From positions 155,026 through 219,025 of the forward strand of contig CAITLU010000013.1 of assembly GCA_903893315.1 (NCBI GenBank): a DNA stretch of 64,000 nt. Reading direction: 5' to 3'. Shown piece by piece: positions 1 through 35,963 of this stretch. The DNA is from an uncultured bacterium (GTDB lineage Bacteria > Desulfobacterota > Binatia > UBA1149 > CAITLU01). A program made the translations under genes and the position numbers. Below the pieces are notes generated by a model that saw nothing but the letters and a program-made list of their open reading frames with translations, was not told the origin of the DNA and did not search any database. Every line of letters starts with the position of its first letter. Positions within the stretch are counted from its first letter, which is position 1.

Positions 1-957
1 GACCTCTTCGTCTCGTACACGTCGCGCGAAGGCCAGGGCTCGTACTTCGACTGCCCGATGATCGTCAACGGCCGCGAAGTCGCTTCGCGCAAACGGTACA
101 TCACCGAAGAAACCACCGGCTACGCTATCGAATTCATAGAGCAGGTAGTCGCACGACCAGCCGCCGAGCGCCGGCCCTTCGTCGTCTACCTTTCGCATCG
201 TCCCGGACACCCGCCCTATCAAGCCCCAGCCGCCATCCACGGGATGTACGACAACATCGACGTGACCAAAGTGTTGCCGCCGAATGTCGATTCGTGGTGG
301 TTCGGTAAGACCGGCGGCAACGTCTTCCAAGGAACGGCGCTGGGCTCGTACTACGATCAGTACCGCGGTTATCTGGAAACACTCACGGCGATGGACCGCG
401 ACATCGGGCGGTTGCTCACCCGCATCGACGAACTCGGCCTCAGAGACAACACCGCCGTCGTCTACATGGCCGACAACGGCATGCAGTGGGGAACTCACGG
501 AATGCACGGCATCCGCGAACCCTACGAAGACAGCGCCAGGCTGCCGTTGATCGTGCGCGCCCCGTGGCTGGTGCCCGACCCTGGCGCACTCAGAGAGCAA
601 CTCGTCGTCAACATCGACATCGCCCCCACGTTTCTCGAAATGGCCGGCGCAGCGCCGCTCGCTCACGCCGACGGCGAGAGCCTGGTGCCGCTCCTGCGCG
701 ACGCGAAGGCCAAGAGCCGCACGGCCTTCTTGATGGAGTTCTGGCGCTACTTTCCCGAAAACACGCCGACCTACCGCGCCGTACGCACGAGCACCCACAA
801 GTACGTGGAGTTCGAGCGGGGCCGCTCTCCGTGGCTTTTCAACGTCGCCGAAGATCCAGGCGAGACGCACAACCTGTACGGAACGCCGCAGGGCAACATG
901 GTGTTGCCGGAGTTACGTGGGATGCTCGAACGGATGAAAGCGGGGAAACGGCCGTAG
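1..957 (+). CDS. Sulfatase (arylsulfatase family), 5'-truncated at the window edge
   Basis: The frame is open from nt 1 in phase with ORF 58..957. The C-terminal sulfatase signature is present: YMADNGMQWGTHGMHG, then ...LFNVAEDPGETHNLYG at the C-terminus. The stop is at 957. Confidence 0.8.
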   Translation, partial: DLFVSYTSREGQGSYFDCPMIVNGREVASRKRYITEETTGYAIEFIEQVVARPAAERRPFVVYLSHRPGHPPYQAPAAIHGMYDNIDVTKVLPPNVDSWWFGKTGGNVFQGTALGSYYDQYRGYLETLTAMDRDIGRLLTRIDELGLRDNTAVVYMADNGMQWGTHGMHGIREPYEDSARLPLIVRAPWLVPDPGALREQLVVNIDIAPTFLEMAGAAPLAHADGESLVPLLRDAKAKSRTAFLMEFWRYFPENTPTYRAVRTSTHKYVEFERGRSPWLFNVAEDPGETHNLYGTPQGNMVLPELRGMLERMKAGKRP

Positions 958-1466
958 GTCGAATAGCCTGGCAACACGGGATGGAATCCGATCCGGCGTT
1001 TTTTGGGTGGAGTCTCAGGCGCCATGATCTGCCGGATAGCGTCGAACACGACCTTGAACTGGCTGTCGTATCGCCGCTCCAACGCGAAGAGCTTTCGCGC
1101 CATTTCCTCTTGGGACAGCAACAGACGACGCAGGCGTACGAACTTTCGCACGATCTCAACGTTGACGGCTACCGCGCGGGCGCCTCGTAGGACACCGGAA
1201 AGCATGGCAACTCCCTGCTCCGTGAACGCGTAAAACGCAGTATGACGTCCGCCCCAACTTGAGATCACAATTTGTGATCTCGAGTTCGTAAACTCAGCGT
1301 CGACAAGCTGGAACATGAAGTCCGCCGGAAATCGTTCGGCGTTCCGCTTCACGGCCTGCACAAGTGCACCGGTCGTTACACCGTACAAGAGGGCGAGATC
1401 GTGATCGAGCATCACCTTCTCAGAGCGGATCAGGTAGATCACGTTCTCGATACGTTCGGACGGCAC
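771..1466 (-). CDS. ORF6N-domain protein (KilA-N/antirepressor-like DNA-binding family); 3' end uncertain
   Basis: The N-terminal 170 aa match the ORF6N family pattern: IYLIRSEKVMLDHDLALLYGV...FMFQL...SQIVISSWGGRHTAFYAFTEQGVAMLSGVLR...VEIVRKFVRLRRLL...KVVFDAIRQIMAP. The ORF runs to 771 and overlaps the sulfatase 3' end convergently by about 187 nt. The tail has odd composition. Confidence 0.6.
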   Translation of the reverse strand: MPSERIENVIYLIRSEKVMLDHDLALLYGVTTGALVQAVKRNAERFPADFMFQLVDAEFTNSRSQIVISSWGGRHTAFYAFTEQGVAMLSGVLRGARAVAVNVEIVRKFVRLRRLLLSQEEMARKLFALERRYDSQFKVVFDAIRQIMAPETPPKKRRIGFHPVLPGYSTYGRFPAFIRSSIPRNSGNTMLPCGVPYRLCVSPGSSATLKSHGERPRSNSTYLWVLVRTAR

Positions 1467-11600: not shown

Positions 11601-12433
11601 CCGGGAAAGTGGACACCCGAAGCAAGGTACTCGTCCAGACGCCGGCGCTCGGAAGACGGCAGCAGCAGTTCCTCGCAACGCTCAGCGACCGTGCGCCGTA
11701 CATCAGCGGCAGCCATGCGCTCAAGCGCCACCGGCGCCGACGGCAGCACCACCAGATCCTCGCTCGGCTGGAAGGAACGCTGGTCGGAAGGATCGAAGAG
11801 TCGAATCGACTCGATGCTGTCTCCCGACAATTCCACTCTCAGCGGGTACTCGAAGCCCGGCGGCCACAGATCTACTATCCCGCCGCGCACTGCGACTTCG
11901 CCGGCTTCGTCGACAGTGGCCACCTTGCGATAGCCCACGCTCTCCAGACGCGGAACGAAGTCCTCCAGCAGCAGTTCGTCGCCCACCACGAAGTAGAGCG
12001 ACGAGGCGAGCAGCATCTCGCGCGGCATCGTCCACTGGGCCAGCGCTTCAACGGCGGCCACCACGATCGGCGCCTTGCTCTGGCAGAGACGGTGCAGCGC
12101 CGCGGTACGCGCCGCTTCGACCTCGGAAGACGGCGAGAGCATCTCCAACGGCGGCGCTTCACGCGCGGCGAACAGATGCACGCGTCTGGCCAGGAAACTG
12201 TCGTCGCCCGCCTCGCCGACAAAGGCTTGCAGTTCGACCACCATTTCCTCGGCCGCTTTCTCGTCGGCCACGACCACCAGGGCAGCGCGATCCTGGCCGT
12301 CGAGCAGGCGCGACAGAACGTAGGCCGGAGCGCCGCCGCCGAGACCCTGGAGACGCCAGAGCAGATTCGGAAAGTTTGCCAGCTCGGCGCGCAGCCCGGC
12401 TTGCAGTTCCTTGGTGGAGGGCGGCGGCGTCAA
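8669..12433 (-). CDS. mfd: Transcription-repair coupling factor
   Basis: The protein is 1254 aa. It has a UvrB-homology N-terminus, the RNAP-interaction region, superfamily-2 translocase motifs ([19 protein letters not shown]) and the TRG motif region. Confidence 0.95.
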
Positions 12434-12882
12434 GAGCGTTCGAGAACCGATACCAGTGCGCGCAGCCCGAGCAGGTAGCTGGTCGCCCCGAAGCCCATCA
12501 CTTGACCGACCGCCACATCGACGATCAGCGAACGGTGACGGAACTCTTCACGGCGGTGGATGTTGGAGAGGTGACACTCGACCACCGGTAGCGCGCAGGC
12601 GCTCACCGCGTCGCGAATCGCCACGCTGGTGTGGGTGTAGGCACCGGGGTTGATCAGGACTCCGCTGTTGCACGCGGCCGCCTGCTGGATGCGGGTGACT
12701 ATGTCGCCTTCGCCGTTGGACTGGTAAGTCTCCAGCGTCCAGCCGAGTTCGGCGGCCAACGCCGTCAGCGAAGCATCGATGTCGGCAAGCGTCGTGGTGC
12801 CGTAGATCTCAGGCTCGCGGCTGCCGAGCATGTTCAGGTTGGGCCCGTGAACGACGAGTATGGGTTTTCGTTTGCTGGTCAT
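12430..12882 (-). CDS. aroQ: Type II 3-dehydroquinate dehydratase
   Basis: The protein is 150 aa from [28 protein letters not shown]. It carries the AroQ signature. The upstream ORF extension is spurious. Confidence 0.9.
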
Positions 12883-12926: not shown

Positions 12927-14639
12927 TCATTCCATCGCCGCGGCGATCTCCGCAACGTCGAGGGTTTCGGCGCGGCAACGGCCGAGGTCTTCGCACAGTA
13001 CGTAAGCCACACCAGCGCGCTCGGCTTTCTTGTCCAGCGCTATCGCCTTGCGAACGGCTTGCCGGTCGAGGCCGGCGGGCACCTGGTGTTCGAGCCCGAG
13101 ACGCACGAGCAATCTCTCGACACGGCGCGCAAGCTCGGACCCACACAGCCCGCGCCGCGCCGAAAGCCGCGCCGCCACTCCCATGCCGATGGCGACAGCC
13201 TCACCGTGCAGGTAGCGGTCGTAGCCGGTCACCTGCTCGACCGCGTGCGCGACGGTGTGGCCGAAGTTGAGAACGCGTCGCAGACCCGTCGTTTCAAACT
13301 CGTCCTTTTCGACGACGTCGGCCTTGATTCGCACGCAGCGGGCGATGATCGGCATCATCACCGCCGGGTCACGGGCCAGCACCGCGTCGGCCTCGGCTTC
13401 GATCCTCTCGAAGAGCGCGCGATCCAGGATGATGCCGTACTTGACCACCTCGGCCAGGCCCGCAAGGTACTCGCGCTGCGGCAGAGTCCCCAACGTGTCC
13501 GGATCGATCAGCACCAGGCTCGGCTGGTGGAAGGCCCCGACCAGGTTCTTGCCGTGGCTGCGGTCGATGCCGGTCTTGCCGCCGACGCTCGAATCCACGT
13601 GCGCCAGCAAAGTGGTAGGGATCATCACGAACCGGACCCCGCGCAGGATGGTAGCAGCGGCAAAACCCGTAAGATCGCCGACCACACCGCCGCCGAGAGC
13701 GACCAGCATCGCCTTACGATCGACACCGGCGTCGAGCACGCGGTCGTAGATCGTTTCGACGGTGGCCATCGTCTTGTAGCGTTCGCCGTCCGGAATCTCG
13801 ACGACATGAACGCGCCCGGCCAGCGTCGCGTCGGCACCGAGCAGAGCCTGTTCGACCGCCGCACCATACAGAGGCCGCACCGTCGAATTGGTGACGACGA
13901 ATATCTTCGAAGGCGCCAGTGCCGCGATGCGCGCAGCACCCGCGCCGAAGCAGCCGCACTCGATCAAGCAGTCATAGCCGCGCGGCCCGAGGTCCACGTG
14001 CACCGTTTCGCCGCCGGCACCGGTCGCGATCCGTTGCGTCATCCCCTGGCCCTGCCCCTGCCCTTGCCGCGTTTCTTGCCGCACCGGCTCGTGTCCCGCC
14101 GCGTCGTGGGTACTTCGAGCGCCGCGTTCGCGCAGACGCGGCGCCAGCACGGTGGCCACGCGCACGACCGCCTGATCCACAGTGAGCCCGTCAGTCTCCA
14201 CCATCACGTCGGCGCCGCGATAATGCGGAAGCCTTTCTTCGAGCAGCTTGCCCAGGCGTGCCGCCGCGTCTTCGCCGGCCGCCAGAGGTCTCTTGTCATT
14301 GCGGCCGACGCGTTCGAGAACGGTTTCAAGCGAAGTGACCAGGCAGACCACCGGCCCGAGGCGGCGCAGTGGCTCGCGGTTCGCCGCCTGTACGAAGGTT
14401 CCGCCGCCGGTCGCAATCACGCTGGCCCGTGCCGGCGCCAGGGTCGTGACCACCTCGTGCTCGACACGCCGGAACTCGATTTCCCCGTGACGCGAAAAAA
14501 ACTCTGCGATCGGCATGCCGATCTTCTCTTCGATGATCTGATCGGTGTCGATGAAGTCGTAGCCCAGACGCCTGGCCAGCCGGCGGCCGACTGCAGTCTT
14601 TCCGCTGGCCATGAAGCCTATGAGCACGACGTGGGACAT
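12927..14639 (-). CDS. aroKB: Bifunctional shikimate kinase / 3-dehydroquinate synthase (fused AroK-AroB)
   Basis: The N-terminus carries the Walker A of shikimate kinase ([22 protein letters not shown]) and the DTD motif. A linker containing QGQGQGQG follows. The C-terminal DHQ synthase carries [14 protein letters not shown] and the metal-binding region. It is a single uninterrupted ORF. Confidence 0.9.
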
Positions 14640-14824
14640 GGATGTCGAAGCCCGATGCGCTCGCCCTTGTTACCCCGCCGTAGCGCAAGCAAGGACGAAC
14701 CGCCGCTGAGCGTCGCGCACGCTATCACAGCAACCCCGCGGAACGCAGGCGTCCACTAGGTACGCCGCAGCGACCGAGTCGTCGCCCAACGCCGCAGATG
14801 GCCCCTTATGGACAGACTGCCTCC

Positions 14825-16351
14825 CTAATCGAGGACGCGTGGAGTAACCATCACTACCAACTCCTCATCCTCGCGCTCACGAGAGTGGCGACCGAAGAGG
14901 TTGCCGAGCAGCGGGACGTCGCGCAGGACCGGGATCCCGGCGCCGCTTCGCTGGCCGGACTCGCGCTGAAGCCCGCCGAGCACTGCGGTCTCGCCGTTGG
15001 CCACCAGTAATTCAGCGTCGACCATGCGGCTGAGTTCCTCGGGAATGTCGTCGGGCGGCAACGGAGCACCGAGGCTGCTCGACTTGGCCTTGATACGCAG
15101 CAGCACGCGGCGCCCGGCCCGCACCGACGGCGTCACTTCGAGACGCACGCCGACCGGAATCTCTTCAGTGGCGCGCTGGCCGTTGTCGACCTCGACGACG
15201 TCGCCGCCGACCACACTGCCGCGACTCGGCAAGCGGATGCGCAGGATGCGCACGCTCTCGACGGAGGCCGGGCTACCTTCGAGCATCACCACGCTCGGAC
15301 GCGAAACCACGTGGACGCGTCCGTCGGCTTCCATCGCCGAGATGCGCGCATCCAACGCTGAAGCACCGCCGGTGGCCAGCACCAGTGCCGCACTGCCGGA
15401 AACGGACGCCGGCGGAGGAAACTTGACGTCGGCGCCTACGTCACCGGCCAGCTTCCAGTCCACGCCGAGATCGAGGCGCGCCGAATGCGTCAACTCGACG
15501 ATCTTGGCTTCGAGCAGGACGCGGCGCCGCGGCCGATCCAATTCGCGCAGCAGGACAAGAGCGCGGTCGATCGCCTCGCGCGTGCCGGAAACCACCAGCG
15601 CGTTCGACGAAAGCTCGGGCACCACCGAAACCTTCAGGGGCTCCGCAGCTTTGGCCATGACTGCGGCCATCTCTTTGGCTGCCGCGTGAGCGAGCGGAAC
15701 GATGCGGGTCTCTATCGACGGCTCGGGTTTCTCGGGCTTTTCTGCCCCCGGCTCGCAGCCGGCCGTAGCCTTTGACCCGCCCGGCATATCAGCAGAAGCA
15801 GTGCCCAAAACCGCTTCGTCGGCGGCCACTGGGGCACCGGGTTCGCGACCACGCGGCTCTCGATTCGACGGCTGAGGACGCGATTGCGGGCGAACTTCGA
15901 TGAGGCCGTCGTCCAACGTGAAGTCGAAGCCGAACACGCGCGCGAACGCAGCCAGTCGCTGCTCCCACGCAAGGTTGCCGCCGTCCGTGGCGGTCAGGTC
16001 GCCGTGGACTTCGGGACTCACGACCAGATCGCGGCCGGCCTCGTGTGCAACTTCCCCGAGCCAGGCAGACAGCGGCCTCGTTTGCACCAGCGGCGTCGCG
16101 CGCGACGAGACGATCGCATCGGGAATGGCCGCTGCGGCTGGGCGGTTCGGCGCATCTGTCGCCTGCGAACGCGCAGCGTCGACCGTCCCGACCACCGTGG
16201 CAGACGGAGGTTGCAGGTACGCGCCCACCGGACCGCGCAATAGCCAGACTGAACAGACCGCCACCACCGCGACTGCGGCGCACCACGCGGCGCTACGGCG
16301 GCGGCCGCGGCGGCGATCGTTCTCCAGCAGATCAGCGTGCACGGCGGGCAC
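14825..16351 (-). CDS. pilQ: Secretin (type IV pilus PilQ / T2SS GspD family) outer-membrane channel
   Basis: The C-terminal secretin domain is present (VLRDVPLLGNLFG, ELVVMVTPRVLD). N0/STN-like and KH-like N domains lie upstream. It sits immediately upstream of aroK-aroB as in canonical pilMNOPQ-aroKB loci. The start may be internal. Confidence 0.8.
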   Translation of the reverse strand: MPAVHADLLENDRRRGRRRSAAWCAAVAVVAVCSVWLLRGPVGAYLQPPSATVVGTVDAARSQATDAPNRPAAAAIPDAIVSSRATPLVQTRPLSAWLGEVAHEAGRDLVVSPEVHGDLTATDGGNLAWEQRLAAFARVFGFDFTLDDGLIEVRPQSRPQPSNREPRGREPGAPVAADEAVLGTASADMPGGSKATAGCEPGAEKPEKPEPSIETRIVPLAHAAAKEMAAVMAKAAEPLKVSVVPELSSNALVVSGTREAIDRALVLLRELDRPRRRVLLEAKIVELTHSARLDLGVDWKLAGDVGADVKFPPPASVSGSAALVLATGGASALDARISAMEADGRVHVVSRPSVVMLEGSPASVESVRILRIRLPSRGSVVGGDVVEVDNGQRATEEIPVGVRLEVTPSVRAGRRVLLRIKAKSSSLGAPLPPDDIPEELSRMVDAELLVANGETAVLGGLQRESGQRSGAGIPVLRDVPLLGNLFGRHSREREDEELVVMVTPRVLD

Positions 16352-17138
16352 CGAACCAGGCCAGCGCCAGGCCTACCGGAACCGCAAGGTCGTCACCCAG
16401 CGCGTGCGCCGCACGCTCGGCCTCGGGACTGACACTCACGGCCGCTAACGGCTGCGGTGACGCGAGCTGCGCGCCGGGAGATTGCCGCAACGACGAATGC
16501 GCCGAAGAACCCGGCGACGGTACCAGCGACGGCGACGAGGCACCCAAGGTGTCGGCCAGCGTCACCAGCGCGCAGGCTTCGCAGTCCAGTGCGAGCAGGC
16601 GAAGACCGGCACGGCGAAACAAACCCTGGGCCTGGCTGACGGCGCGAAGCTGGGCGCGAACCCGCAGCCCCGAATTGGCGGAATCACCGGCTGCCACCTT
16701 GATGTTTGCCACACGCTCGGCGGCCGTCGGCTCCGCACCGTCGGCGACCACCGCACCGCCGTCGGCCACCATCGTTTCGCCGACCGGAGACGCCGCAGCG
16801 CTGCCGCGCCGGACGCGCGTCTCACCTGCCCGGTCGATGGTGCAGAATGGCGCAGCCAGCGCAGCGACGTGGCCGAAACGATCGGCGCCCAGCAACCACG
16901 CCAGTTCGACGATGCCCGGCGCGAACAGCGACGGCGGACCGCCGTGCGCGTAGGAAGCGGCGCAGGCTTCGAGCAACGGCTCATCTGCGGTGCGGACGAT
17001 GACGGCCGCGACCAGTCGATCAGCGGCGAGATACCAGAATGTGGCGCGACCGGCCCTGAGTGATGCGAACATGACCGCGCCACCCTGCCCGCGTCGGTCC
17101 CGCGCGCGCAACGACGGCGATGTAATGGAACGCAGCAA
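16332..17138 (-). CDS. Hypothetical protein (weak PilM/N/O/P-like character at best)
   Basis: A 268 aa ORF sits just upstream of the secretin. No recognisable motifs. A high-GC artefact is possible. Confidence 0.25.
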   Translation of the reverse strand: MLRSITSPSLRARDRRGQGGAVMFASLRAGRATFWYLAADRLVAAVIVRTADEPLLEACAASYAHGGPPSLFAPGIVELAWLLGADRFGHVAALAAPFCTIDRAGETRVRRGSAAASPVGETMVADGGAVVADGAEPTAAERVANIKVAAGDSANSGLRVRAQLRAVSQAQGLFRRAGLRLLALDCEACALVTLADTLGASSPSLVPSPGSSAHSSLRQSPGAQLASPQPLAAVSVSPEAERAAHALGDDLAVPVGLALAWFGARRAR

Positions 17139-17183: not shown

Positions 17184-18002
17184 TCAGCGCGGCAAGCGCG
17201 ACAGTACTTCCTGGGCGAGAGTCGCGACGTGAGTCCCGTCGGCGGCAAACACGTGGCCGATCGCCAGCCCGCGACCTCCCACGTAGTTGTGGCATGACAT
17301 GTCGTGCAGGTGCCACGCATCGGCACGCAGCGGACGGTGGAACCAGATGGTGTGATCGAGACTCGCGTTGAACATCTTCTCGCCGGCCTCGCTGCGTCGC
17401 CGCGCTTCGGGATGGGAACGGATAACGGTGTCGGTGGGAAGGTCGTCGGACAGGTAGGCGAGCGCGCAGCGCTGCATCAGCTGATCGTCGCCGAGGTCGC
17501 TCGTCACCTTCATCCAGGCGCCCGTGCGGCCTGCGCCGGTGCCGGCGGGTTCGGCCAGGACGCCGTCCGGAAGGAAGCGGCGGTCGAAGAACTCGCTCCA
17601 CGAAGTGGCCGGCAGATCTTCGGGCGCAGGCAGACCTCCGGGCATCGGCACCGTCTGGATGTCGTCGCTGTCCTCGTGACACTGAAACGAAGCTTCGAGG
17701 TTCAAGATGGCGCCTATCGACTGGCGGGCAACGACGCGGCGGGTGGCAAAGCTGTGCCCGTTGCGGATGCGGTCGACCTCGTAGCGCACCGGCTCCTGGT
17801 TGTCACCGCGGCGGATGAAGTAGGCGCGCAGCGAATGCGGCAGCAGACCCGCTTCGACCGTGTTGGCCGCGGCACGAAGCGCCTGGGCGACGATGTGCCC
17901 GCCGTAAAGACCGCCCCACGCGTAGCTGAGCCCTTCACCGACGTAGACGTCGGGGCCGTGAGAAGCGAGGTCGAACAGTTCGCTGAGGTTGCGTGATGCC
18001 AT
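17184..18002 (-). CDS. tesB: Acyl-CoA thioesterase II
   Basis: The protein is 272 aa from MASRNLSELFDL. It has the double hotdog fold pattern of TesB (GGHIVAQALRAA...). Confidence 0.85.
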   Translation of the reverse strand: MASRNLSELFDLASHGPDVYVGEGLSYAWGGLYGGHIVAQALRAAANTVEAGLLPHSLRAYFIRRGDNQEPVRYEVDRIRNGHSFATRRVVARQSIGAILNLEASFQCHEDSDDIQTVPMPGGLPAPEDLPATSWSEFFDRRFLPDGVLAEPAGTGAGRTGAWMKVTSDLGDDQLMQRCALAYLSDDLPTDTVIRSHPEARRRSEAGEKMFNASLDHTIWFHRPLRADAWHLHDMSCHNYVGGRGLAIGHVFAADGTHVATLAQEVLSRLPR

Positions 18003-23830: not shown

Positions 23831-24907
23831 ATGGACCCGGACATCCGGCCCATGGCACGCGATTTGCTTCTCACCACTGCCAATGGCGAAACGGAGTGCA
23901 GAATGAGGCGAGCAAGTCCCAAGGTAATCGACGCGGCGTCCGCCTCGCCGACGCGGTCGGTTGCAGCGGGCGACGCGGCTGATGGCGGCGCCGCGACCGA
24001 TTCGCCGCTACCCGACAAGATCCCGCGTTTCCTGAGAACCGAGAGGTTGCTGCACTGGGCACTCGCCTTGCCGTTCCTCGGCTGCCTCTTCAGCGCTGTC
24101 GCGCTGGTCGTCGTCTACAACCCGGATCCGACGCGACCTTACCGCTACGTCTTCGCCTGGGCTCACCGCGGCTGTGGTGCCGCACTGTTCATCCTGCCGA
24201 GCCTCGTCCTGCTCACCAGCGGACGCCACATGCGAGTGCTGCTCTACAACATCCGCCAGGCGTGGGGCTGGAGACTCGACGACATCAAGTGGCTGATGCT
24301 GATGGGCCCGGCCACCGTCTTCAAGCGGATCGTGCTGCCCGACCAGGGCAAGTTCAACGCTGCCGAAAAACTGAATTTCATGATGGTGATGGTCTTTACC
24401 CCGCTTTTCATAGCCAGCGGCATCGCGATCTGGCTGCCCGACTACACTTCGCTCGACCCGTTCGCACCGTGGATGTTTCACTGCGCCCTGGCCGCAACCG
24501 GACTGCCGCTGATTCTCGGCCACATGTTCATGGCCATGATCAACCCCGAAACTCGCGTCGGGCTGAGCGGCATGATCACCGGCTCGGTGAGCCGAACCTG
24601 GGCCCAGCATCACTACGCGCGCTGGTATCGCGAGCAGTTTCCCCACCTGGTCGCTGCCGGCGGCGACCACCACAAATCCGGCGCTGAACCGGCAACTGCG
24701 GCGGCCGTGGATGGGCAAACGTCGCCGGAGGTCACATCGAATGAATTGGAGCAACCGCGCGATGCGACAATGCGGGCCGCTGAGAGTAGGGTGGCGTGCG
24801 AAGACGAATATGAATCGAGCGATCCCGGGGGGGACGAGGCTGGATGTGTCCGCGAGGCGTATTTCGCCAGCGATGCAGGTGCTTCGAGAGACGTGATGGC
24901 GCCCTGA
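23831..24907 (+). CDS. Di-heme b-type cytochrome, membrane subunit (FdnI/HydC Ni/Fe-hydrogenase b-cytochrome family)
   Basis: Four predicted transmembrane helices carry His in TM1 (LHWALALPF), TM2 (AWAHRGCG) and twice on TM4 (FHCALAATGLPLILGH). The NAAEKLNF motif is present. The exact start is uncertain. The C-terminal tail is acidic. Confidence 0.7.
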   Translation: MDPDIRPMARDLLLTTANGETECRMRRASPKVIDAASASPTRSVAAGDAADGGAATDSPLPDKIPRFLRTERLLHWALALPFLGCLFSAVALVVVYNPDPTRPYRYVFAWAHRGCGAALFILPSLVLLTSGRHMRVLLYNIRQAWGWRLDDIKWLMLMGPATVFKRIVLPDQGKFNAAEKLNFMMVMVFTPLFIASGIAIWLPDYTSLDPFAPWMFHCALAATGLPLILGHMFMAMINPETRVGLSGMITGSVSRTWAQHHYARWYREQFPHLVAAGGDHHKSGAEPATAAAVDGQTSPEVTSNELEQPRDATMRAAESRVACEDEYESSDPGGDEAGCVREAYFASDAGASRDVMAP

Positions 24908-24996
24908 TTGCATCACTGCCGCTACCCGCAATTTATTGCGCGCATCCGCGATCCTTTGCGCGATTTTGTGCGCGGATATCGGCAGTGAAAGTTCGG

Positions 24997-26499
24997 ATGG
25001 CCACCCTCATGGCGTTCACGAGCGCGTTGTTGGCCGCGGTGCCTGGGATCGTGCGTAACAAATGGAAAGGCGCCCGTCGAAGCTCCGCACGTCGGTTTCA
25101 CACGAATCTAACGACGACGTGTGGACGATGGCATTCGCCATGTGTTCTGCTGTGCCTGATGCTGCTCACTAGCACACCGATGGTCTTCCGTTCCACACCG
25201 GCACGGGCCTCCTGGGTCGAGTCGCTGGTCATGCCGGGCGAAGTCGCGGCCAAGCACGCCAAGATCGAGCACGAATGCACCAAGTGTCACGCACCGCTCG
25301 ACAAGGTGGCGCAGGAAAAACTTTGCCTGGACTGCCACAAGGAGGTGGCCGCGGATCTGCTCGAAAAGCGCGGGTTCCACGGCCAGTCACCCGATGTCAG
25401 CGGACGGCCGTGCAAGACTTGCCACGCCGAGCACAAGGGACGCACCGCCGACCTGGTGCATCTCGACCGCGACAAGTTCGACCACCGGCTGACCGATCAC
25501 CCGCTGGTCGGCGCCCATCTGCTGGCGAAATGCGACGGCTGCCACAAATCCGACAAGCGCTTTCGCGAAGCGCCTCCGCACTGCAGCGACTGTCACACCG
25601 CCAAAGATCCGCACGAAGGTACCCTCGGGCTCACCTGCAACAACTGCCACGATGAGTCAGCCTGGAAATCAGTGCGCTTCAACCACGACACCGTTGCCTT
25701 TCACCTGGAGGGCCGCCACCGTGAAGCGCACTGCGATGACTGTCACAAGACTCGCCTTTTCAAGTCCACCGCGACGGACTGCTTCTCGTGCCACGAGCGC
25801 AAGGACGATCACCACGGCAGCTTCGGCCGCGACTGTCAGTCCTGTCACACGACGCGCGGGTTTGCCGGCACGACGTTCGACCACGCCCGCAAGACGAAGT
25901 TTCCCCTGGTCGGAAAGCACGCGCACGTCGCGTGCGGGAAATGCCACAAAAACGGGCTTGCCGCAGCACTCACGCCGACCAACTGCCACGACTGCCACGA
26001 GTACGACGCGAGCCGTCACGGACTGTTCGGGAGCAAGTGCGAGAGTTGCCACACGCCGGACGACTGGCGGCGCACGATCTTCGACCACGACCGGGACACT
26101 CACTTTCCGTTGCGCGGCCACCACGTCGGTCGCCGCTGCACCGACTGTCACCGCTCGGACCTGCGCGTGGAACGCCCCGACCAGAAGTGTGTCGGCTGCC
26201 ATCGCGACGACGACGTCCACCACGGTCGCCAGGGCACCGACTGCAAACACTGCCACGACGAACGCGGCTGGAGTCGCGACGTGCTGATCGACCACAACGC
26301 AACCCGCTTTGCGCTGACGGGCGCGCATGCGCGGACAGCCTGCCTGCGCTGCCACCAGTCACCGCAGTTCAAGGAAGTCGCGCTGGAGTGCGTCGGCTGT
26401 CACAAGGAAGACGCCTCCGCGCACCGCTGCGAACGCGGCAGCGATTGCGCTCGCTGTCACGACACCTCCAACTTCCACACGATCAAGGCGGCCCACTGA
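24997..26499 (+). CDS. 18-heme c-type cytochrome made of six tandem tri-heme cytochrome c7-type domains
   Basis: There are 18 CxxCH motifs in a periodic pattern of about 75 aa: F-x-H-x(2-3)-H ... CxxCH ... CxxCH ... CxxCH, repeated six times. The start and signal peptide position are uncertain. Confidence 0.85.
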   Translation: MATLMAFTSALLAAVPGIVRNKWKGARRSSARRFHTNLTTTCGRWHSPCVLLCLMLLTSTPMVFRSTPARASWVESLVMPGEVAAKHAKIEHECTKCHAPLDKVAQEKLCLDCHKEVAADLLEKRGFHGQSPDVSGRPCKTCHAEHKGRTADLVHLDRDKFDHRLTDHPLVGAHLLAKCDGCHKSDKRFREAPPHCSDCHTAKDPHEGTLGLTCNNCHDESAWKSVRFNHDTVAFHLEGRHREAHCDDCHKTRLFKSTATDCFSCHERKDDHHGSFGRDCQSCHTTRGFAGTTFDHARKTKFPLVGKHAHVACGKCHKNGLAAALTPTNCHDCHEYDASRHGLFGSKCESCHTPDDWRRTIFDHDRDTHFPLRGHHVGRRCTDCHRSDLRVERPDQKCVGCHRDDDVHHGRQGTDCKHCHDERGWSRDVLIDHNATRFALTGAHARTACLRCHQSPQFKEVALECVGCHKEDASAHRCERGSDCARCHDTSNFHTIKAAH

Positions 26500-29183
26500 T
26501 GGCAACGCCGAAGCACATCGCTCTGTGGATCAGTGTTCTGCTTGCCGCTTTGTCGGCGGCGCCGCTGCATGCCGCCTGCACGGGCGGAGGAACTTCGGGC
26601 CTGGCCCCGCCGGCAGTTTCTTTCCTGCGCAGTTACCGCGCCCCGTTCGGTGCGCCGACTCGCATGGCGGTCGATGCTTCCGGAAAGATCTATGTGACCG
26701 ATCCCTCGCAGGGACAGGTCGTCGTGCGCGAAGCGAGCGGGCGGATCATCTCGCGTGCGACCGTCGCAACGCGCCCGGTGAGCGTCGCGGTCAACGCTGC
26801 CGGCCGCGTCTATGTTGGCGATTCAACTTCGGGCAGCGTCACCGCCTACGACTCAGAGTGGAACGCGGTGCTGCGATTCGGCCGGGGCGACGGCGAATTC
26901 CAGCAACCGAGCGATCTGTCGTTGGAAGCCGCCACCGGCGACGTCTACGTCGCCGACAGCGCGGCCCAACTGGTGAAGGTCTACAGCGCCGACGGCATTT
27001 TCCTGCGTTCATTCGGCGGGCAGGGTAACGGCGACGGCGAATTCAACTACCCGGTAGGCGTATTCGTCGACGCGCCTGCGCGCCGTGTGCTGGTAGCCGA
27101 CCAGCTCAACTATCGAATCCAGGTCTTCGATCTGAGCGGCACTTTCGTCAGTTGCTTCGGCGGGCACGGCAGCGGCGCGGGGAATTTCAACATGCCGCAG
27201 GGCGTGACGGTCGACGGCCTGGGCCGCGTGTACGTCGCCGATGCCGTCGAAGGACGCGTCCAGGTGCTCGACCGCAGCGGCGACTTCGTCGGCTTCATCG
27301 GTGACTTCGGCGACGACGCCGCGCAACTGCGCATTCCCATCGGCATGGTCATCGATCCGTCCAACAGGTTGTTCGTCGCCGCTTCCAACAACGCGCGTCT
27401 CGAAGTGTTCGGGCTCGACACCTTCGCCGATCCGGAAACCATCCTGCCCGCCGTGGTTCGGGTGGAGCCGGAAATGATCGAGCGGGCCACGCCGGGAAAC
27501 TCGATCGGCGCGTACCTGGAAGTGCCGGGATACATGCTCGACCGCATCGACGCCGCCAGCATTGTCGCGAACGGCGTTCCCGCGCTGCCGGGTACGAACT
27601 CGATCGGCGATGGGAATGGTGACGGCGTTGCCGACCTGCGCGTCGAGTTCGCTCCCACGGCTTTGCTGGCCACTCTTCCCGCCGGCGGCATCGGCGGCAT
27701 CGCCATCTCCGGAACTTTGTCCGGCATTCGCTTCGAGGGATCGACGACGGTTCGTGTGAGCACCTGCGGGCCCACCACGGTGTGCCCGCTCGGTGCAGCC
27801 GACCCTCAGTGCAACGAAGCCGTGTGCGACGCGGCAACCGGTTGCACCGTGCGGCCGAAAAACGACGGCGCCGGTTGCGAAGACGGCAGTGCCTGCACGA
27901 TGGACGACGTCTGCGCCGCTGGCATATGCACCGGTGCGACGCTGGCCTGCAACGACGTCAACGTCTGCACCGACGACGGCTGCGACACCGCTGCCGGTTG
28001 CGTCTTCGCCGCCAATACCGCGCCGTGCGACGACGCGAACGCCTGCACCACCGACGACACCTGTGCAGCACAAACCTGTTCGGGCGCGGCGATAACGTGC
28101 AACGACGGCAATGCCTGCACCGACGACGGCTGCGACACCGTGACCGGCTGCGTATTCGCCGCCAATAACGCACCGTGTGACGACGCGAGCATCTGCACCA
28201 CGGACGACACATGCGTGGACGGCGTCTGCACGGGAACGCGGATTTCCTGCAATGACGGCAACCTATGCACCGACGATGTCTGTGATCCGCTGGCCGGCTG
28301 CACGCACGCCGATAATCGCGGACCTTGTGACGACGGCGATCCGGGAACGGTAGCCGACACCTGCGACGGCAACGGTCTGTGCCGTGGCCAGACCGCGACA
28401 GGCCAATACGCGATCCTGCAGTGGCCCCCGGAATCGTCCGGGCGCCGGACGGTGACGATTGCGGCTCGTGGCCTGGTCGGCGGCAACGTGTGCGCCGAAA
28501 ACATCAGCATCGGCCGATCGGTCGAGGTGAACGGCGACGTTCTGGCCTGGTCGCCCGTCGATCGCGCGCTCAGCTTGCGTTCCGGCGTCTGGATCGACGG
28601 CAACGTCGTGAGCGGCGGCGGAGCGATTACCGGCCTCGAATTCGCAACCATCGGCGGCCTGGTCGATTCGGCCGGCGGCACCGCCGAATTCGAAGACTGC
28701 TTCGCTGCACGCTACCAAGCCGCGCAGCGCCGCGCCGAGTTCGTGACGTTGCTCCCCACGCCCGGAATGACCACGGGATCGCTGCGGCTCGGCGTGTTGG
28801 AAGAACGGCGAATTCCCGAGACGGGAGACGTCGGCAGCGGCCTGATCGTGATCGACGCCGACAGCATCAACCTGGCGACCTCGAGTCGGCTGACGATCGT
28901 CGGCGACGCATCAACCGAACAGGTCGTGGTCCGCGTTCGCGGCCGGCTTATCCTGGAACGCGGCGCGAGCATCGTCGTCGAAGGATTTCCGGCAGAGCGA
29001 CTGATCTTCGTGGTGGACGGAACAATCAACCTGCGGTTGCAGACGCGCGTCGATGGTTCGCTGTTCGGAGCCGGGACGGTCCGGATCGGCAGCGGCGGCG
29101 CGGTCAGCGGCGCGGTCATCGGCCGCACCGTCGACCTGGCTCATTCGGCAAGTATCAATCTGCAACCGTTCGTGGGGTGGTGA
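26499..29183 (+). CDS. Secreted NHL-repeat beta-propeller protein with cysteine-rich tandem repeats and a C-terminal beta-helix-like region
   Basis: The ATG overlaps the upstream TGA (ATGA). The signal peptide is MATPKHIALWISVLLAALSAAPLHAAC. NHL blades are present (YVADsxnxRVqVfD-like, about 6). Four repeats of about 51 aa follow, of the form CNDGNxCTDDGCDtxxGCvfaaNxxPCDDxxxCTTDDTC. A G/V/I-rich repetitive tail ends the protein. Confidence 0.8.
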   Translation: MATPKHIALWISVLLAALSAAPLHAACTGGGTSGLAPPAVSFLRSYRAPFGAPTRMAVDASGKIYVTDPSQGQVVVREASGRIISRATVATRPVSVAVNAAGRVYVGDSTSGSVTAYDSEWNAVLRFGRGDGEFQQPSDLSLEAATGDVYVADSAAQLVKVYSADGIFLRSFGGQGNGDGEFNYPVGVFVDAPARRVLVADQLNYRIQVFDLSGTFVSCFGGHGSGAGNFNMPQGVTVDGLGRVYVADAVEGRVQVLDRSGDFVGFIGDFGDDAAQLRIPIGMVIDPSNRLFVAASNNARLEVFGLDTFADPETILPAVVRVEPEMIERATPGNSIGAYLEVPGYMLDRIDAASIVANGVPALPGTNSIGDGNGDGVADLRVEFAPTALLATLPAGGIGGIAISGTLSGIRFEGSTTVRVSTCGPTTVCPLGAADPQCNEAVCDAATGCTVRPKNDGAGCEDGSACTMDDVCAAGICTGATLACNDVNVCTDDGCDTAAGCVFAANTAPCDDANACTTDDTCAAQTCSGAAITCNDGNACTDDGCDTVTGCVFAANNAPCDDASICTTDDTCVDGVCTGTRISCNDGNLCTDDVCDPLAGCTHADNRGPCDDGDPGTVADTCDGNGLCRGQTATGQYAILQWPPESSGRRTVTIAARGLVGGNVCAENISIGRSVEVNGDVLAWSPVDRALSLRSGVWIDGNVVSGGGAITGLEFATIGGLVDSAGGTAEFEDCFAARYQAAQRRAEFVTLLPTPGMTTGSLRLGVLEERRIPETGDVGSGLIVIDADSINLATSSRLTIVGDASTEQVVVRVRGRLILERGASIVVEGFPAERLIFVVDGTINLRLQTRVDGSLFGAGTVRIGSGGAVSGAVIGRTVDLAHSASINLQPFVGW
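27948..28390 (+). repeat. Intragenic tandem DNA repeat (about 150 bp unit, about 3 copies) encoding the cysteine-rich modules
   Basis: Units beginning tgcaacgacg...ctgcaccgacgacggctgcgacacc recur at 27948, 28098 and 28248, with decreasing identity. Confidence 0.6.
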
Positions 29184-29191
29184 AGACGTCG

Positions 29192-30580
29192 ATGGCATCG
29201 AAGCTGACAGCGTTCTCGTGGCTGCTCCTGACGTGGGCGGCGTACGCGTCGGGGCCGGCATACGCGCTCGACCCGCCGCACGACGTCAGTCGGTCGATCG
29301 ACTGCGCCAGTTGCCACATCTCGCACCATGCGGCGGGCGGCTCGATCACCCGGATCAGCGGTAACTCCAACCTGTGCGCGAGTTGCCACTCGGCCGGCGG
29401 CGTTGCGGCCACAAGCGCGCTCGCCAACAGCGACCAGGCGATCCCCGGCGTGAGCGGCACTTCACACCGCTGGGATTCCGGCGCGTCCGGCTGGGTGAAG
29501 AAGAATCCCGCCAACACCTCGACCGGAACGGTGCGCTCCACCGGCGTCTTCACCGGGCGCTATCGCAAGACCTACACGATCACCATCACCGCCGACGGTG
29601 TCGGCAACGCCGGTGGTGCCCAGTTCGCGTGGACCACGTCCACGCCGCAGCGCAATACGTACCTCGATGCGTTCCCAGCGCTGGCATACAACGGCAGCAG
29701 CGGCACGCAGGATTGGAGCGCAACCGCATGGCAGGAGAGCGGCGAGGCCGACGGCGTTGCCGCCGGCGTCGTGCGCGTCGTGACCAACGCCGCGTGCGCC
29801 GCCGGCAACTGCCTTCGCGTGGGCGGCGTAATCATCAACGGCATCAGCGTGGCGCGTGCGGCCGATCTTCACGCGGGCACGGCCGCCATGCTGACGTTCA
29901 GCTACCGCCGCCAGCTTGCTGCCTGTCCAAATACGAACACCGACGGGGTGGCGCTTCAGGTAAGCGCGGACGCTGTTTCGTGGACGACGCTGGCTACTTA
30001 CGTGCTGAACGCGTGCGATGCAGCGCAGGTGGAACAGGCCTTCGACGTCACGGCCTACATCGCGGCGACAACCGCGATTCGCTTCCTCGGTACCGGAACC
30101 AGCGCAGCCACCGACTTCATCTACGTCGACGACGTGCAGATTGAGAACCTCGTTGCCGGCGGCGGCGCCGCCGGCGTTTCGGCTGCCGGCACCGTAGCCC
30201 TCGACGAGGGCATCAGCGTGACGTTCGGCAACGGGACATCATCGCCCTACTTCAAGCTCGGCAGCCAGTGGACCGTCTACGCCAACCCGGACATCAACCA
30301 GCCGACGTCCTTCGCTCTTGCCGCGCGCCTGGCTAATGAAAAGGTCACCTGCTCCACCTGCCACAACGAGCACAGCCAGTTGGCTGAGCCGTTCGATCTG
30401 GCGGCGCCGGCCTACCCGTTGACGGGGAACGGCGGGGAGGGACGACACAACCAGCGTCTCGACAACGACATCAACCAGATATGCGTCGACTGCCACAGTG
30501 CGCGCAACGTCACCGCGGCGCAGAGTTCACATCCGGTGGGAATCGTCATCCCCGCCACCGGCTCGTACAAGAACCCATAG
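29192..30580 (+). CDS. Tetra-heme c-type cytochrome with a large non-heme central domain, secreted
   Basis: The signal peptide is MASKLTAFSWLLLTWAAYASGPAYA. Two CASCH motifs lie near the N-terminus, and CSTCH and CVDCH lie near the C-terminus. They flank about 300 aa of beta-rich sequence with no heme motif. Confidence 0.8.
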   Translation: MASKLTAFSWLLLTWAAYASGPAYALDPPHDVSRSIDCASCHISHHAAGGSITRISGNSNLCASCHSAGGVAATSALANSDQAIPGVSGTSHRWDSGASGWVKKNPANTSTGTVRSTGVFTGRYRKTYTITITADGVGNAGGAQFAWTTSTPQRNTYLDAFPALAYNGSSGTQDWSATAWQESGEADGVAAGVVRVVTNAACAAGNCLRVGGVIINGISVARAADLHAGTAAMLTFSYRRQLAACPNTNTDGVALQVSADAVSWTTLATYVLNACDAAQVEQAFDVTAYIAATTAIRFLGTGTSAATDFIYVDDVQIENLVAGGGAAGVSAAGTVALDEGISVTFGNGTSSPYFKLGSQWTVYANPDINQPTSFALAARLANEKVTCSTCHNEHSQLAEPFDLAAPAYPLTGNGGEGRHNQRLDNDINQICVDCHSARNVTAAQSSHPVGIVIPATGSYKNP

Positions 30581-30588
30581 GATCCACC

Positions 30589-31971
30589 ATGACGCGGCTC
30601 AACCGATTTCTCAGCGCGGCCTGCATTCTCCTGGCGTCATCGCTCGCCGGAATCGCCGCGGCCCAGACCCCGGCGCCGTTGCCTGCCGCTGCCTTTCCTC
30701 TGCCGCTCGACAAGAAGATGAACATGGTGCGCTGCACCACGTGTCACGACGCGCACTTCCAGAGCGGCGGCAACGGCATGCTGCTGCGCAGCGGCGACAT
30801 CAACGCTCTGTGCACCGATTGTCACACTCTGGCCGACACCGCTTCTCCGGCCGCGCACCTCGATCCCTCCACCGGCGTGCTGTGGCCCGGCCCGCAGTAC
30901 GGCACACTTTTCCCGCGCGTAACCGACACGTCACAGCGCGGCTTCTGCAGCAACTGTCACCAGGCGCACGGCTGGCCCGACGAGGCCAACGCGGGGCAGG
31001 ACTACCCATCGCTGCTGGTCAATCGCGAAGAGAACCTATGTTTCGCCTGTCACGACGGAAGCCCCGCGGCCAAGAACGTCATTGCCTCGTTCGCCAAGAG
31101 TTACCGCCACCCCACTACCGACTACAGCAACCGTCACACCACCACCGAGGACGGCGTAGCGGCAAACTTCGGCACGTCCAATCGTCACGCCGAATGCACG
31201 GACTGTCACGACGCCCACGTCGCCCGCGCCGACGCTACCGCACCGGTTGCGCCGGCGGCTTGGAACAGCATCCGCGGAGTCAGTCGAATCGCGGTCACCA
31301 ACGGCGCCGCCGGTACCGCGCCGGCGTACACATACCGCGGACCCACCGACACAACCGCGCCCGTGGCCGAATATCAGCTGTGTTTCAAGTGTCATTCGTC
31401 GTGGACCACCCGGCCCGCGGGCCAGTCGGACCTGGCCGTGCGTTTCAACACCAACAACCCCTCCTTCCACCCGGTGGAAGGTCAGGGCAAGAACCTCAAC
31501 ATCAACGTCAACTCCTTCGTGCCAGGCTGGAATGCGCTGCGCACGACATACTGCAGCGACTGTCACGCAGACAACGACGCGAGCGTGCGTGGCCCGCACG
31601 GCTCTCAGTACCGCTACCTGCTCAAACGGCCCTATGTGGCGAGCGGCGCGTCGCGCACGACCGCCGCAACCGAGGCGTGCTTCGACTGCCACACCTTTGC
31701 CACCTACGCTAGCACCGTGTCCAGCGACACCGTGCTTGGCTACAGCCGCTTCAACCGGCCCGGTTTTGAAGAAGGCCACTCTTTCCACGTCGTCAAAAAG
31801 GGGGCTCCCTGCTACGCCTGCCACGACTCGCACGCTTCCAGCACCAAGCCGCATCTGATCGTCACCGGCCGGGTTCCGGGTCTGAACAGCTACACCGAAA
31901 CGGCAACCGGCGGCAGTTGCTCCCCTACGTGCCATGGCACACAAACCTACAGGATAAACTATGCGCGCTGA
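30589..31971 (+). CDS. Deca-heme c-type cytochrome (paired-CXXCH, Geobacter-type), secreted
   Basis: The signal peptide is MTRLNRFLSAACILLASSLAGIAAA. There are nine CxxCH motifs plus one CxxxCH (CSPTCH). Confidence 0.85.
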   Translation: MTRLNRFLSAACILLASSLAGIAAAQTPAPLPAAAFPLPLDKKMNMVRCTTCHDAHFQSGGNGMLLRSGDINALCTDCHTLADTASPAAHLDPSTGVLWPGPQYGTLFPRVTDTSQRGFCSNCHQAHGWPDEANAGQDYPSLLVNREENLCFACHDGSPAAKNVIASFAKSYRHPTTDYSNRHTTTEDGVAANFGTSNRHAECTDCHDAHVARADATAPVAPAAWNSIRGVSRIAVTNGAAGTAPAYTYRGPTDTTAPVAEYQLCFKCHSSWTTRPAGQSDLAVRFNTNNPSFHPVEGQGKNLNINVNSFVPGWNALRTTYCSDCHADNDASVRGPHGSQYRYLLKRPYVASGASRTTAATEACFDCHTFATYASTVSSDTVLGYSRFNRPGFEEGHSFHVVKKGAPCYACHDSHASSTKPHLIVTGRVPGLNSYTETATGGSCSPTCHGTQTYRINYAR

Positions 31972-32394
31972 TCCACGCACCGCGGTCTCACTCGCCACGT
32001 CGAATACGTGCGCCGCGCGTTTACGCGCTCCGTGCGCCGCCGGCCCTGAGCACCTTTTGGCGAATCGTCGAGCATCCGAAGACTACCGTGCGATCCTGCA
32101 AGTACGGCGCGTTAGCGCGCAAACAATTGCTCGGTTCGGGGCTCGCGCATCAGGACGGTTCGTTGACTTCGCGTCGGCTGCGGCCGGATTGGGTTGGCCC
32201 GCGATACCTGAAATCACCAGGGCACCGGAAATGCGCGCCGACGATGCTGCGTCCTGGAACAGGCAGAATGCGGCGAAAAACAACGCGAAGACTCCATGAA
32301 CGCTTCGGACAGGCTCTCGTCCGCCATCGTCTCGATTTTGCCGAAAGCATCCGGCAGCGGGTTGGCTCGCGTGTTGCTTATCAAACGACCTCTC

Positions 32395-33486: not shown

Positions 33487-33604
33487 GCCGCTGGGGGAGG
33501 GGCGTATTCCGGCGAATGATGCGCGAAGTCGGACATCGAGAAATACAAACGAAGCTAGAGAGCGTGAAACGAACAGACGGAAAGGAACGATAGGAGGTTC
33601 CATC

Positions 33605-34255
33605 ATGAAAAGAGGAAGATCATTATTAATCGCCGCATCCTTGCTGGTGCCAACCATGGCGTCGGCGGGGACCATCGCCAACACGAAGCACGACTTGAGC
33701 GCGACCTCGACCGCGGTGATCAAGTCGGGGACTCAAACCGACACCTGCGTGTTCTGCCACGTATCGCACAGCAGCGCTCCGGGCGTGGCGCGGCCGTTGT
33801 GGAGCCACACGATGACCACCCAGAACCTGACCTGGGCGCCGACCACGACGGTGCGCGGGACGGTACTGCCGACCGCGATCACCAGCGCAGCGCTGACCGG
33901 CTCACGTTCATGCATGAGTTGTCACGACGGGACAGTCGCGCTCGGCGATCTGCTCAACGGAACCGGCGGCACCGTCAGCGGAACCAACGTCACGGCCGGC
34001 AAGCTGACCGGTGGCATCAACCTGCTCAACCCGGCATCGATGCAGAGCAACCATCCGATCGGTGTTGCCAAGCCGGCGGCGGCCACCGGCTTCACGGCCT
34101 TCAAGACCGTCGCGGCCAGCAGCCCCGTCAACTACGATTCGTCCGGTTTCGTACAGTGCGACTCGTGCCACAACCCGCATGACAACACCTTCGTGCCGTT
34201 CCTGAGGATCAGTCCGGCGGGCGGTGCGATCTGCACCTCCTGCCACGACATCTGA
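33605..34255 (+). CDS. Tetra-heme c-type cytochrome, small secreted (216 aa)
   Basis: A strong RBS (taggagg) sits 8 nt upstream of ATG 33605. The signal peptide is MKRGRSLLIAASLLVPTMASA. CVFCH, CMSCH, CDSCH and CTSCH are present. The N-terminal motif TKHDLS...CxxCHxSH...PLW is shared with the 39045 cytochrome. Confidence 0.85.
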   Translation: MKRGRSLLIAASLLVPTMASAGTIANTKHDLSATSTAVIKSGTQTDTCVFCHVSHSSAPGVARPLWSHTMTTQNLTWAPTTTVRGTVLPTAITSAALTGSRSCMSCHDGTVALGDLLNGTGGTVSGTNVTAGKLTGGINLLNPASMQSNHPIGVAKPAAATGFTAFKTVAASSPVNYDSSGFVQCDSCHNPHDNTFVPFLRISPAGGAICTSCHDI

Positions 34256-35938: not shown

Positions 35939-35963
35939 CCGGCAGCACACTTGCGGCATCGTG

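Follow-up and report, generated by a model that had tools for sequence, protein, structure and literature searches.

A two-gene locus of Binatia pairing a PilM-like protein with a PilQ-type secretin, a possible compacted derivative of the type IVa pilus operon

The locus described here lies in a 64,000-nucleotide stretch of contig CAITLU010000013.1 (assembly GCA_903893315.1), from an uncultured bacterium of the class Binatia; we refer to this whole stretch as the window. On its minus strand, a tesB-like gene, a small open reading frame (ORF), a secretin gene, an aroK–aroB fusion, aroQ, mfd and a SurA-like gene follow one another in a row, and on the plus strand priA, def, fmt and rsmB point away from this row, beginning at position 18258. 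A preliminary description of this DNA had presented the secretin as an orphan of PilQ type that precedes a single 570-residue AroK–AroB ORF, with tesB beyond a small ORF on the other side, and every gene of that arrangement is where it was said to be. There is likewise no space upstream of the secretin for the four assembly genes of a pilus operon, as had been pointed out: a single ORF (16332..17138) is found in the 832 bp from the secretin start to the tesB stop; its true start is the ATG at 17072, and its 246-residue product is identical to the called protein P0121. We propose that this small gene and the secretin together form a compacted, two-gene envelope module that derives from the type IVa pilus and is conserved throughout the class Binatia, a reading to which we assign a probability of about 0.5.

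The pairing of the two genes is a constant feature of related loci, 21 of which came from screening a single genome of each GTDB species and six more from exact protein look-up; their gene order was mapped by local hidden Markov model (HMM) and BLAST searches. The small gene, which we call pilM-like for reasons given below, lies directly 5′ of the secretin in 23 of the 23 related loci with upstream sequence. It is also the only gene between priA/tesB and the secretin in all loci, so that pilN, pilO and pilP are missing there. The preliminary description was right to allow for one small gene at this place, but its characterization of that ORF as weak does not hold, given that every related locus has a homologue at this place. 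A word-index search returned 60 homologues of the product at E ≤ 1e-3, and among 1.84 billion cluster representatives a search by profile returned 56 at the same threshold, nearly all of them of ~120–280 residues and none of PilM length. The two genes are also physically interlocked. In 22 of 24 loci, the window included, the start of the secretin lies 8–20 nt short of where the PilM-like stop codon ends, and in the window the first 20 nt of the secretin gene (16332-16351) fall within the end of the pilM-like gene. The secretin is probably translationally coupled to its partner. The lengths of the overlap step by three (8, 11, 14, 17 and 20 nt), and the stop codon always sits just ahead of a conserved leucine pair near the secretin's N-terminus.

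The likely nature of the upstream protein comes from its predicted structure. An AlphaFold2 model built from 27 sequences (mean predicted local distance difference test score, pLDDT, 69.5; predicted template modeling score, pTM, 0.68) consists of a β-β-β-α-β-β core, another α/β subdomain and a pair of C-terminal helices, with disorder in loops 89-113 and 181-210; the ordered core amounts to ~160 residues. When this model was compared with the PDB by Foldseek, PilM from P. aeruginosa and T. thermophilus came out on top (E 1.3e-4 to 3.9e-4, probability 1.00), followed by FtsA and then by the cytoplasmic domain of GspL/EpsL/PulL. By two methods, PilM, the cytoplasmic GspL domain and FtsA outrank all other actin-like folds. 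On the basis of this ranking, the modeled protein belongs structurally to the PilM/GspL/FtsA subgroup.

Members of the family measure ~190-280 residues, versus ~355 for PilM, an ATP-binding protein of four subdomains, and consist of three conserved blocks with variable loops between them. Strand 1, as read from the sequence, is ATFWYLAADR and lacks the DxG phosphate-1 motif. The small size, the ~160 aligned residues and the missing DxG together suggest that the protein is a reduced form that keeps the half made up of subdomains 1A and 1C, and that it probably does not bind ATP, as is the case for cytoplasmic GspL. Four cysteines (C37, C77, C164 and C167, the latter two forming a C-x2-C in LDCEPCAL) do not vary in the 27-sequence core alignment, and some of them are gone in deeper branches (L003, L016). 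These residues may form a metal site or a disulfide.

By sequence comparison and modeling, the secretin has the body of a PilQ that, like HofQ, is devoid of AMIN domains. The AlphaFold2 model of the protein (31 sequences) begins with a helix at residues 9-45 and a disordered stretch at 46-87, continues with a βαββαββ domain at 89-155 (pLDDT 83-96), a second disordered stretch at 161-204 and an N1 domain at 213-271, and ends with the secretin domain. Foldseek against the PDB places the competence-pilus PilQ of V. cholerae (6w6m) first with E 1.5e-16, and PulD and InvG follow just behind. More specifically, hhalign matches residues 85-160 to the N0 domain of six PilQ-type proteins (probability 96.7%, E 3.4e-10, 66 columns), and the same domain reaches a probability of 5% against GspD-type N0. 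The assignment to the PilQ type, which the preliminary description had also made, draws on the N0 match and the best fold match in the PDB, and the NCBIfam models rank the protein in the same way: PilQ (TIGR02515) leads with 158.3 bits, followed by GspD (149.1 bits), SctC, MshL and HofQ. The TIGR02515 score misses the cutoff of 284.35, and all nine NCBIfam secretin models remain below their cutoffs; Pfam STN has no match on the protein. No AMIN domain (PF11741) is present in the secretin, and residues 1-87 are taken up by a tail, a helix and a disordered linker. This first linker varies from 23 to 87 residues over the family and is unconserved in the alignment; summed with the second linker, it gives a median of 101 residues, a minimum of 56 and values up to >200. 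Homologues of the secretin are 41-74% identical to it, 450-535 residues long and equipped with the same two Pfam domains. Where their source is named, it is mostly Candidatus Binatia, and an identical 508-residue secretin is on record.

It is at the N-terminus that this secretin family departs from its canonical counterparts. The family begins with the pattern M-x(1-5)-[D/E/N]-[L/F]-L, followed by an arginine-rich stretch and an Ala/Val-rich hydrophobic run. At the median, the n-region is 18.5 residues long with five lysines or arginines, and it measures 15-22 residues in most members; the hydrophobic run has a median of 19 uncharged residues, usually with an arginine next. In canonical secretins recovered by the same search, the n-region covers 0-17 residues (mostly ≤10), and the signal peptide is of the ordinary or the lipoprotein kind. 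The motif, the arginine cluster and the hydrophobic run of ~19 residues are kept down to 41% identity, and in the window's protein residues 11-40 are modeled as a helix with pLDDT 81-92.

This layout recalls PilN. PilN proteins whose genes adjoin that of a canonical PilM (those of L024 and of 13 metagenome loci in the L030-L045 series) start with MIKINLLG[D/E]E and continue into a transmembrane helix, and E. coli HofN starts with MNPPINFLPWRQQRR, likewise followed by a transmembrane helix. Certain members of the secretin family start MNLLPYAS or MDLLPYAS, close to the INFLPW of HofN. PilM is bound between two of its subdomains by the eight N-terminal residues of PilN (PMC6325625). The periplasmic coiled coil and ferredoxin-like domain of PilN are absent from the Binatia protein, in which the helix leads through a disordered linker directly into N0.

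Similarity of fold, conservation of synteny and the sequence pattern lead us to propose the following mechanism. The first gene would encode a shortened, PilM/GspL-like cytoplasmic protein that comprises the N-terminal half (subdomains 1A and 1C) and is devoid of the nucleotide-binding half. The second would encode a PilQ/HofQ-type secretin in which a PilN-like N-terminus replaces the AMIN domains and the ordinary signal peptide. We expect the helix of this secretin to remain embedded in the inner membrane, its N-terminus on the cytoplasmic side (the orientation predicted from the arginine cluster), and the tail to dock onto the PilM-like protein as PilN docks onto PilM. With the disordered linkers, the C-terminal domains should be able to extend to the outer membrane and oligomerize there; at the family minimum of 56 residues, or about 20 nm or more when extended, the linkers are compatible with spanning the periplasm. 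One polypeptide and a PilM would then replace the noncovalent PilM–PilN–PilO–PilP–PilQ chain, and the motor ATPase, the platform protein, and the pilins or substrate are presumed to be encoded elsewhere in the genome; what passes through the pore could be a pilus, a pseudopilus, DNA or a protein. The most specific element of this mechanism, that a PilN-derived helix anchors the secretin covalently in the inner membrane while the tail recruits a PilM without domain 2 in place of PilN, PilO and PilP, is one that we put forward tentatively.

Several results weigh against this proposal. The PilM-like ORF has no match in Pfam or NCBIfam (27 members, Pfam at E ≤ 10; no PilM_2). Its model is only moderate in quality at a pLDDT of 69.5, and the TM-scores are low (0.36-0.42). 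Comparison by hhalign with E. coli HofM and with a PilM profile covers 13-36 C-terminal columns only and is not significant: a 30-sequence canonical PilM profile gives E 0.088 and a probability of 0.65% over the C-terminal 36 columns. The family profile finds a chance match only among PDB sequences (E 1.6). The C-terminal motif GDDLAVPVGLALA of the PilM-like protein resembles GGDFAIALGLALG of HofM, in an alignment that is again not significant. As for the secretin, Pfam PilN has no match in the N-terminal 50 residues (20 N-termini, E ≤ 10), and scoring 97 secretin N-termini and 13,275 controls with an HMM of 12 PilN N-termini leaves the two sets unseparated (median 0.7 bits versus −2.1). The enrichment is weak, with 13 of the 97 above the 99th percentile of the controls and three above the 99.9th. 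A model of the motif alone detects nothing among the 97. From these non-significant Pfam and HMM tests, the likeness to PilN appears limited to layout and position, a matter of sequence pattern that falls short of demonstrated homology. Moreover, pilus machinery is missing from the surroundings: the 64-kb window holds no pilN, pilO or pilP, and no gene for a pilus or secretion ATPase, a platform protein or a pilin.

The gene overlap raises a difficulty of its own. The D codon of the motif (GAY) shares two bases with the upstream TGA stop in 17 of 24 loci, and L006 pairs an N codon (AAC) with a TAA stop; because the motif codon shares bases with the stop, conservation of D/N is possibly in part a by-product of the overlap. 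This codon–stop co-variation, seen in 18 of the 24 loci, and the lack of significant PilN matches favor the main alternative, an ordinary exported secretin with a long, cleavable Sec or Tat-like signal peptide, which after cleavage would be a HofQ-like pore, free in the outer membrane. The PilM-like protein would then serve a PilN encoded elsewhere or have some other cytoplasmic role, and the motif would reflect the overlap. An RRR cluster ahead of an Ala/Val/Gly-rich h-region, often with an arginine after it, is indeed typical of Tat signals, and the well-studied secretins are, to our knowledge, all exported via cleaved signal peptides or lipoboxes. We nonetheless consider export by a cleaved signal somewhat unlikely. 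The overlap is probably not the whole explanation of the motif, because the LL lies outside it in all cases and D/E is retained in six loci without stop overlap (L001, L012, L014, L015, L020 and L021), two of which have no gene overlap whatever. The n-region of 15-22 residues is longer than in canonical secretins, no conserved AxA site is seen after the helix in the alignment, and TAT_signal is unmatched in Pfam (20 N-termini, E ≤ 10) and in NCBIfam. Such an account also leaves unexplained why the secretin is paired and overlaps with a PilM-fold gene, at the usual position of pilN.

The view with which the preliminary description had left the locus, an orphan PilQ-type secretin whose alignment genes are lost from this locus or which serves an unrelated system, and on which the upstream ORF would have to be spurious or unrelated, is in keeping with the lack of Pfam and NCBIfam annotation for that ORF, with secretin scores under all NCBIfam cutoffs and with the absence of pilN, pilO, pilP and further pilus genes from the window. 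We regard it as improbable, since an upstream ORF that is conserved, fixed in position, overlapping with the secretin start and of a predicted PilM/GspL/FtsA-type fold contradicts it: a lack of all alignment genes is not supported, and the PilN-like layout of its N-terminal tail and helix calls their loss further into question. Equally, one might see in the pair a decaying and functionless remnant of a pilMNOPQ operon, as could be argued from the truncation and strong divergence of the PilM-like protein, the long low-complexity linkers and a third-position guanine-cytosine content (0.755 in the pilM-like gene) slightly under that of the neighbors. However, both ORFs are intact in >20 independent genomes at ~40-74% identity, with invariant residues and with domains predicted at high confidence, and we give this possibility very little credence.

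If the locus is indeed a compacted pilus-derived module, its probable origin is illustrated by the sole non-Binatia locus recovered, L024 (labelled Bdellovibrionales). There, between positions 3785 and 9041, priA is divergent from pilM-pilN-pilO-(gap)-pilQ, with a canonical pilM (384 residues, PF11104) and a canonical pilQ (878 residues). The PilQ of L024 has an N0 domain and the secretin motif AKSSTLGPPLGGDAIPAEIER, which resembles the Binatia motif, and adjacency of priA and the pilM gene is common to L024 and Binatia. A canonical operon in the same priA-adjacent slot suggests, by analogy, that the Binatia pair is a reduction of a priA-adjacent pilMNOPQ operon; the PilM-fold gene takes the place of pilM, and the tail and helix fall at the point where pilN begins. 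The module probably arose by deletion in such an ancestral operon; a deletion from inside pilN to before the N0 domain of pilQ would give the present architecture.

Comparison with well-known systems shows how much of the type IVa pilus arrangement would be retained. As in the PilM-N-O-P-Q systems of P. aeruginosa, M. xanthus and T. thermophilus, an actin-fold gene comes first and the secretin last, and the secretin has PilQ-type N0, N1 and secretin domains; in layout, the tail and one putative transmembrane helix that follow the pilM-type gene in Binatia also recall these systems. The Binatia locus differs in having no pilO, no pilP, no PilN periplasmic domain and no AMIN domains, and in building the PilN-like tail and helix into the secretin polypeptide. 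The hofMNOPQ–aroK–aroB locus of E. coli likewise encodes a short, AMIN-less secretin (N0, N1, secretin domain) followed by aroK and aroB, and HofM is also short at 259 residues. Unlike the Binatia locus, E. coli has separate hofN, hofO and hofP genes, and its aroK and aroB are unfused; the HofQ models NF010083 and NF007851 score 93.7 and 84 bits on the Binatia secretin against cutoffs of 554 and 598. In the GspL protein of type II secretion, a PilM-like domain, a transmembrane helix and a PilN-like periplasmic domain are fused, whereas in Binatia the PilM-like protein is separate and the putative transmembrane helix is on the secretin. GspD differs in its N0 type and in having N1-N3 versus the single N domain of the Binatia protein, which scores 149.1 bits with TIGR02517 against a cutoff of 351.35.

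The features of the window's locus are listed in Table 1.

Table 1. Genes and protein segments from tesB to aroQ, with positions in the window
Feature	Position	Strand	Remarks
tesB-like acyl-CoA thioesterase II gene	17184..18002	−	272 aa; Pfam 4HBT_3C, Acyl_CoA_thio, 4HBT_3
pilM-like gene	16332..17072	−	246 aa; predicted shortened actin-fold protein, PilM / cytoplasmic GspL / FtsA group
Secretin gene	14825..16351	−	508 aa; Pfam Secretin_N and Secretin
Predicted cytoplasmic tail, MPAVHADLLENDRRRGRRR	16295..16351	−	Secretin aa 1-19; [D/E/N]-[L/F]-L motif and Arg cluster
Hydrophobic helix, SAAWCAAVAVVAVCSVWLL	16238..16294	−	Secretin aa 20-38; signal anchor or signal-peptide h-region
Linker 1	16091..16237	−	Secretin aa 39-87; variable, Ala/Pro-rich, predicted disordered, pLDDT < 50
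N0 domain, PilQ (STN-like) type	15887..16090	−	Secretin aa 88-155
Linker 2	15716..15886	−	Secretin aa 156-212; variable, Pro/Ala/Glu-rich, predicted disordered
Single N1 (Secretin_N) domain	15524..15715	−	Secretin aa 213-276; PF03958 E 1.4e-10 (aa 215-276); pLDDT 93-97
Secretin pore domain and stop	14825..15337	−	Secretin aa 339-508; PF00263 E 6.5e-36 (aa 339-507); motif AKSSSLGAPLPPDDIPEELSR
AroK–AroB fusion ORF	12927..14639	−	570 aa
AroK (shikimate kinase) domain	14130..14639	−	Fusion aa 1-170; PF01202 E 4e-41
Fusion linker	14043..14129	−	Fusion aa 171-199, ends (QG)4; sits where relatives have the aroK–aroB spacer
AroB (3-dehydroquinate synthase) domain and stop	12927..14042	−	Starts at Met200 of the fusion; TIGR01357 362.6 bits, above cutoff 305
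aroQ, type II 3-dehydroquinate dehydratase	12430..12882	−	150 aa; TIGR01088 189.9 bits, above cutoff 169.85

The order of these genes is stable in relatives, reading priA (divergent), small ORF, secretin, aroK, aroB, aroQ, mfd and surA, with a gene of ~1.1 kb between the secretin and aroK that is aroC in L003, the sole locus with an annotation for it. Identical synteny in >20 independent metagenome assemblies rules out misassembly of the locus, and with it the idea, raised in the preliminary description, of a pilMNOP cluster hidden in a misassembled region. That description had also recognized an ancestral pilQ-aroK-aroB linkage, and rightly so: E. coli K-12 has hofM-N-O-P-Q-aroK-aroB, and of the 24 Binatia loci that reach past the secretin stop, 20 have the secretin linked to aroK and aroB, as does the window. 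The linkage is missing in L001, L007 and L008, and in L010 the aro genes lie ~7 kb off. In L001 (11613-13398), two small ORFs (one of them a DUF2283) and a histidine-kinase-like gene follow the secretin instead, so linkage to the aro genes is common but not obligatory.

On the upstream side, tesB stands between priA and the pilM-like gene in the window only and is not found at that spot in L001-L021; the window's tesB-like protein scores 184 bits with TIGR00189, under the cutoff of 293. In L026, cytochrome and ferredoxin/FAD oxidoreductase genes lie upstream of the pilM-like gene, and no priA is called. Because tesB is specific to the window and the neighbors in L026 differ again, the upstream boundary of the module appears to be a hotspot of rearrangement. 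A scan of the minus strand for promoters and terminators between 12300 and 18400 found nothing. The aroQ stop overlaps the TTG start of mfd by 4 nt (12430-12433), and a possible long form of aroQ (alternative ATG at 12930) would overlap the aroKB stop in an ATGA (12927-12930). Given these start/stop overlaps and the lack of a terminator-like site, the genes from tesB through mfd may all be transcribed as a single unit. PagL, SurA and LspA are also encoded in the window, in agreement with a diderm envelope.

The fusion of aroK and aroB is real, recent and confined to the sub-lineage of the window. Pfam finds SKI (residues 10-159), DHQ_synthase and DHQS_C in a single frame of the 570-residue ORF, and the repeat linker noted in the preliminary description is present, ending in QGQGQGQG. 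Two relatives, each from a different metagenome, have a fused ORF as well: L026 (570 residues) and L027 (563 residues), whose secretins are 67% and 64% identical to that of the window. The three fused proteins can be aligned end to end; their linker of ~30-40 residues varies, and (QG)4 is specific to the window. Since three independent assemblies agree on an uninterrupted fusion, with no stop codon splitting it, sequencing error is ruled out as its cause. In every locus of the synteny map aroK and aroB occupy separate frames, 70 nt apart in L002. The simplest history is that the aroK stop was lost and the spacer was read through to the old aroB start, now Met200. NCBIfam includes models for bifunctional AroK/AroB proteins, and the ORF scores below the cutoffs of both NF010627 (283 versus 565) and NF010556 (229 versus 560). 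Together with the separate genes of close relatives, these scores indicate an independent and recent case of a known type of fusion, formed by way of the intergenic spacer. On its own, the fusion is of minor interest.

Elsewhere in the window, a cluster of ~17 kb on the plus strand (23831-40754) encodes multiheme c-type cytochromes with 18, 4, 9, 4, 9 and 11 CXXCH motifs. Its products include MtrC/MtrF-like domains, three NHL/β-propeller proteins and one cytochrome b561-like protein, as well as a 684-residue ORF without a Pfam match (35925-37979). The cluster lies between rsmB and rpe and looks like an insertion, because rpe directly follows rsmB in L001, L002 and L003; it possibly serves extracellular electron transfer. 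Close to the secretin locus of L026, too, an MtrC-like cytochrome is encoded. At the other end of the window, an ORF resembling the C-terminal fragment of a sulfatase (58-957, plus strand) overlaps an ORF with an ORF6N domain (771-1466, minus strand).

A central question about type IV pili, type II secretion and DNA uptake is how the outer-membrane secretin comes into register with the inner-membrane motor. In every studied system that we know of, several separate proteins (PilN/O/P or GspC/L/M) make this link. The components of the Binatia locus, a secretin and a PilM-fold protein, are known, and their arrangement appears to be new: we found no description of it in the searchable literature, nothing relevant on pili or secretion systems in Binatota or on secretins anchored in the inner membrane, and no mention of pili in the Binatota genome paper and its supplements. 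The pilQ–aroK–aroB neighborhood reaches well beyond Proteobacteria, and these data provide a first functional lead for an unannotated family that counts 56 representatives among 1.84 billion proteins. If our proposal is correct, a link cut down to a PilM-like protein and a self-anchored secretin would show the minimal requirements for alignment, and the module would offer a simple structural target.

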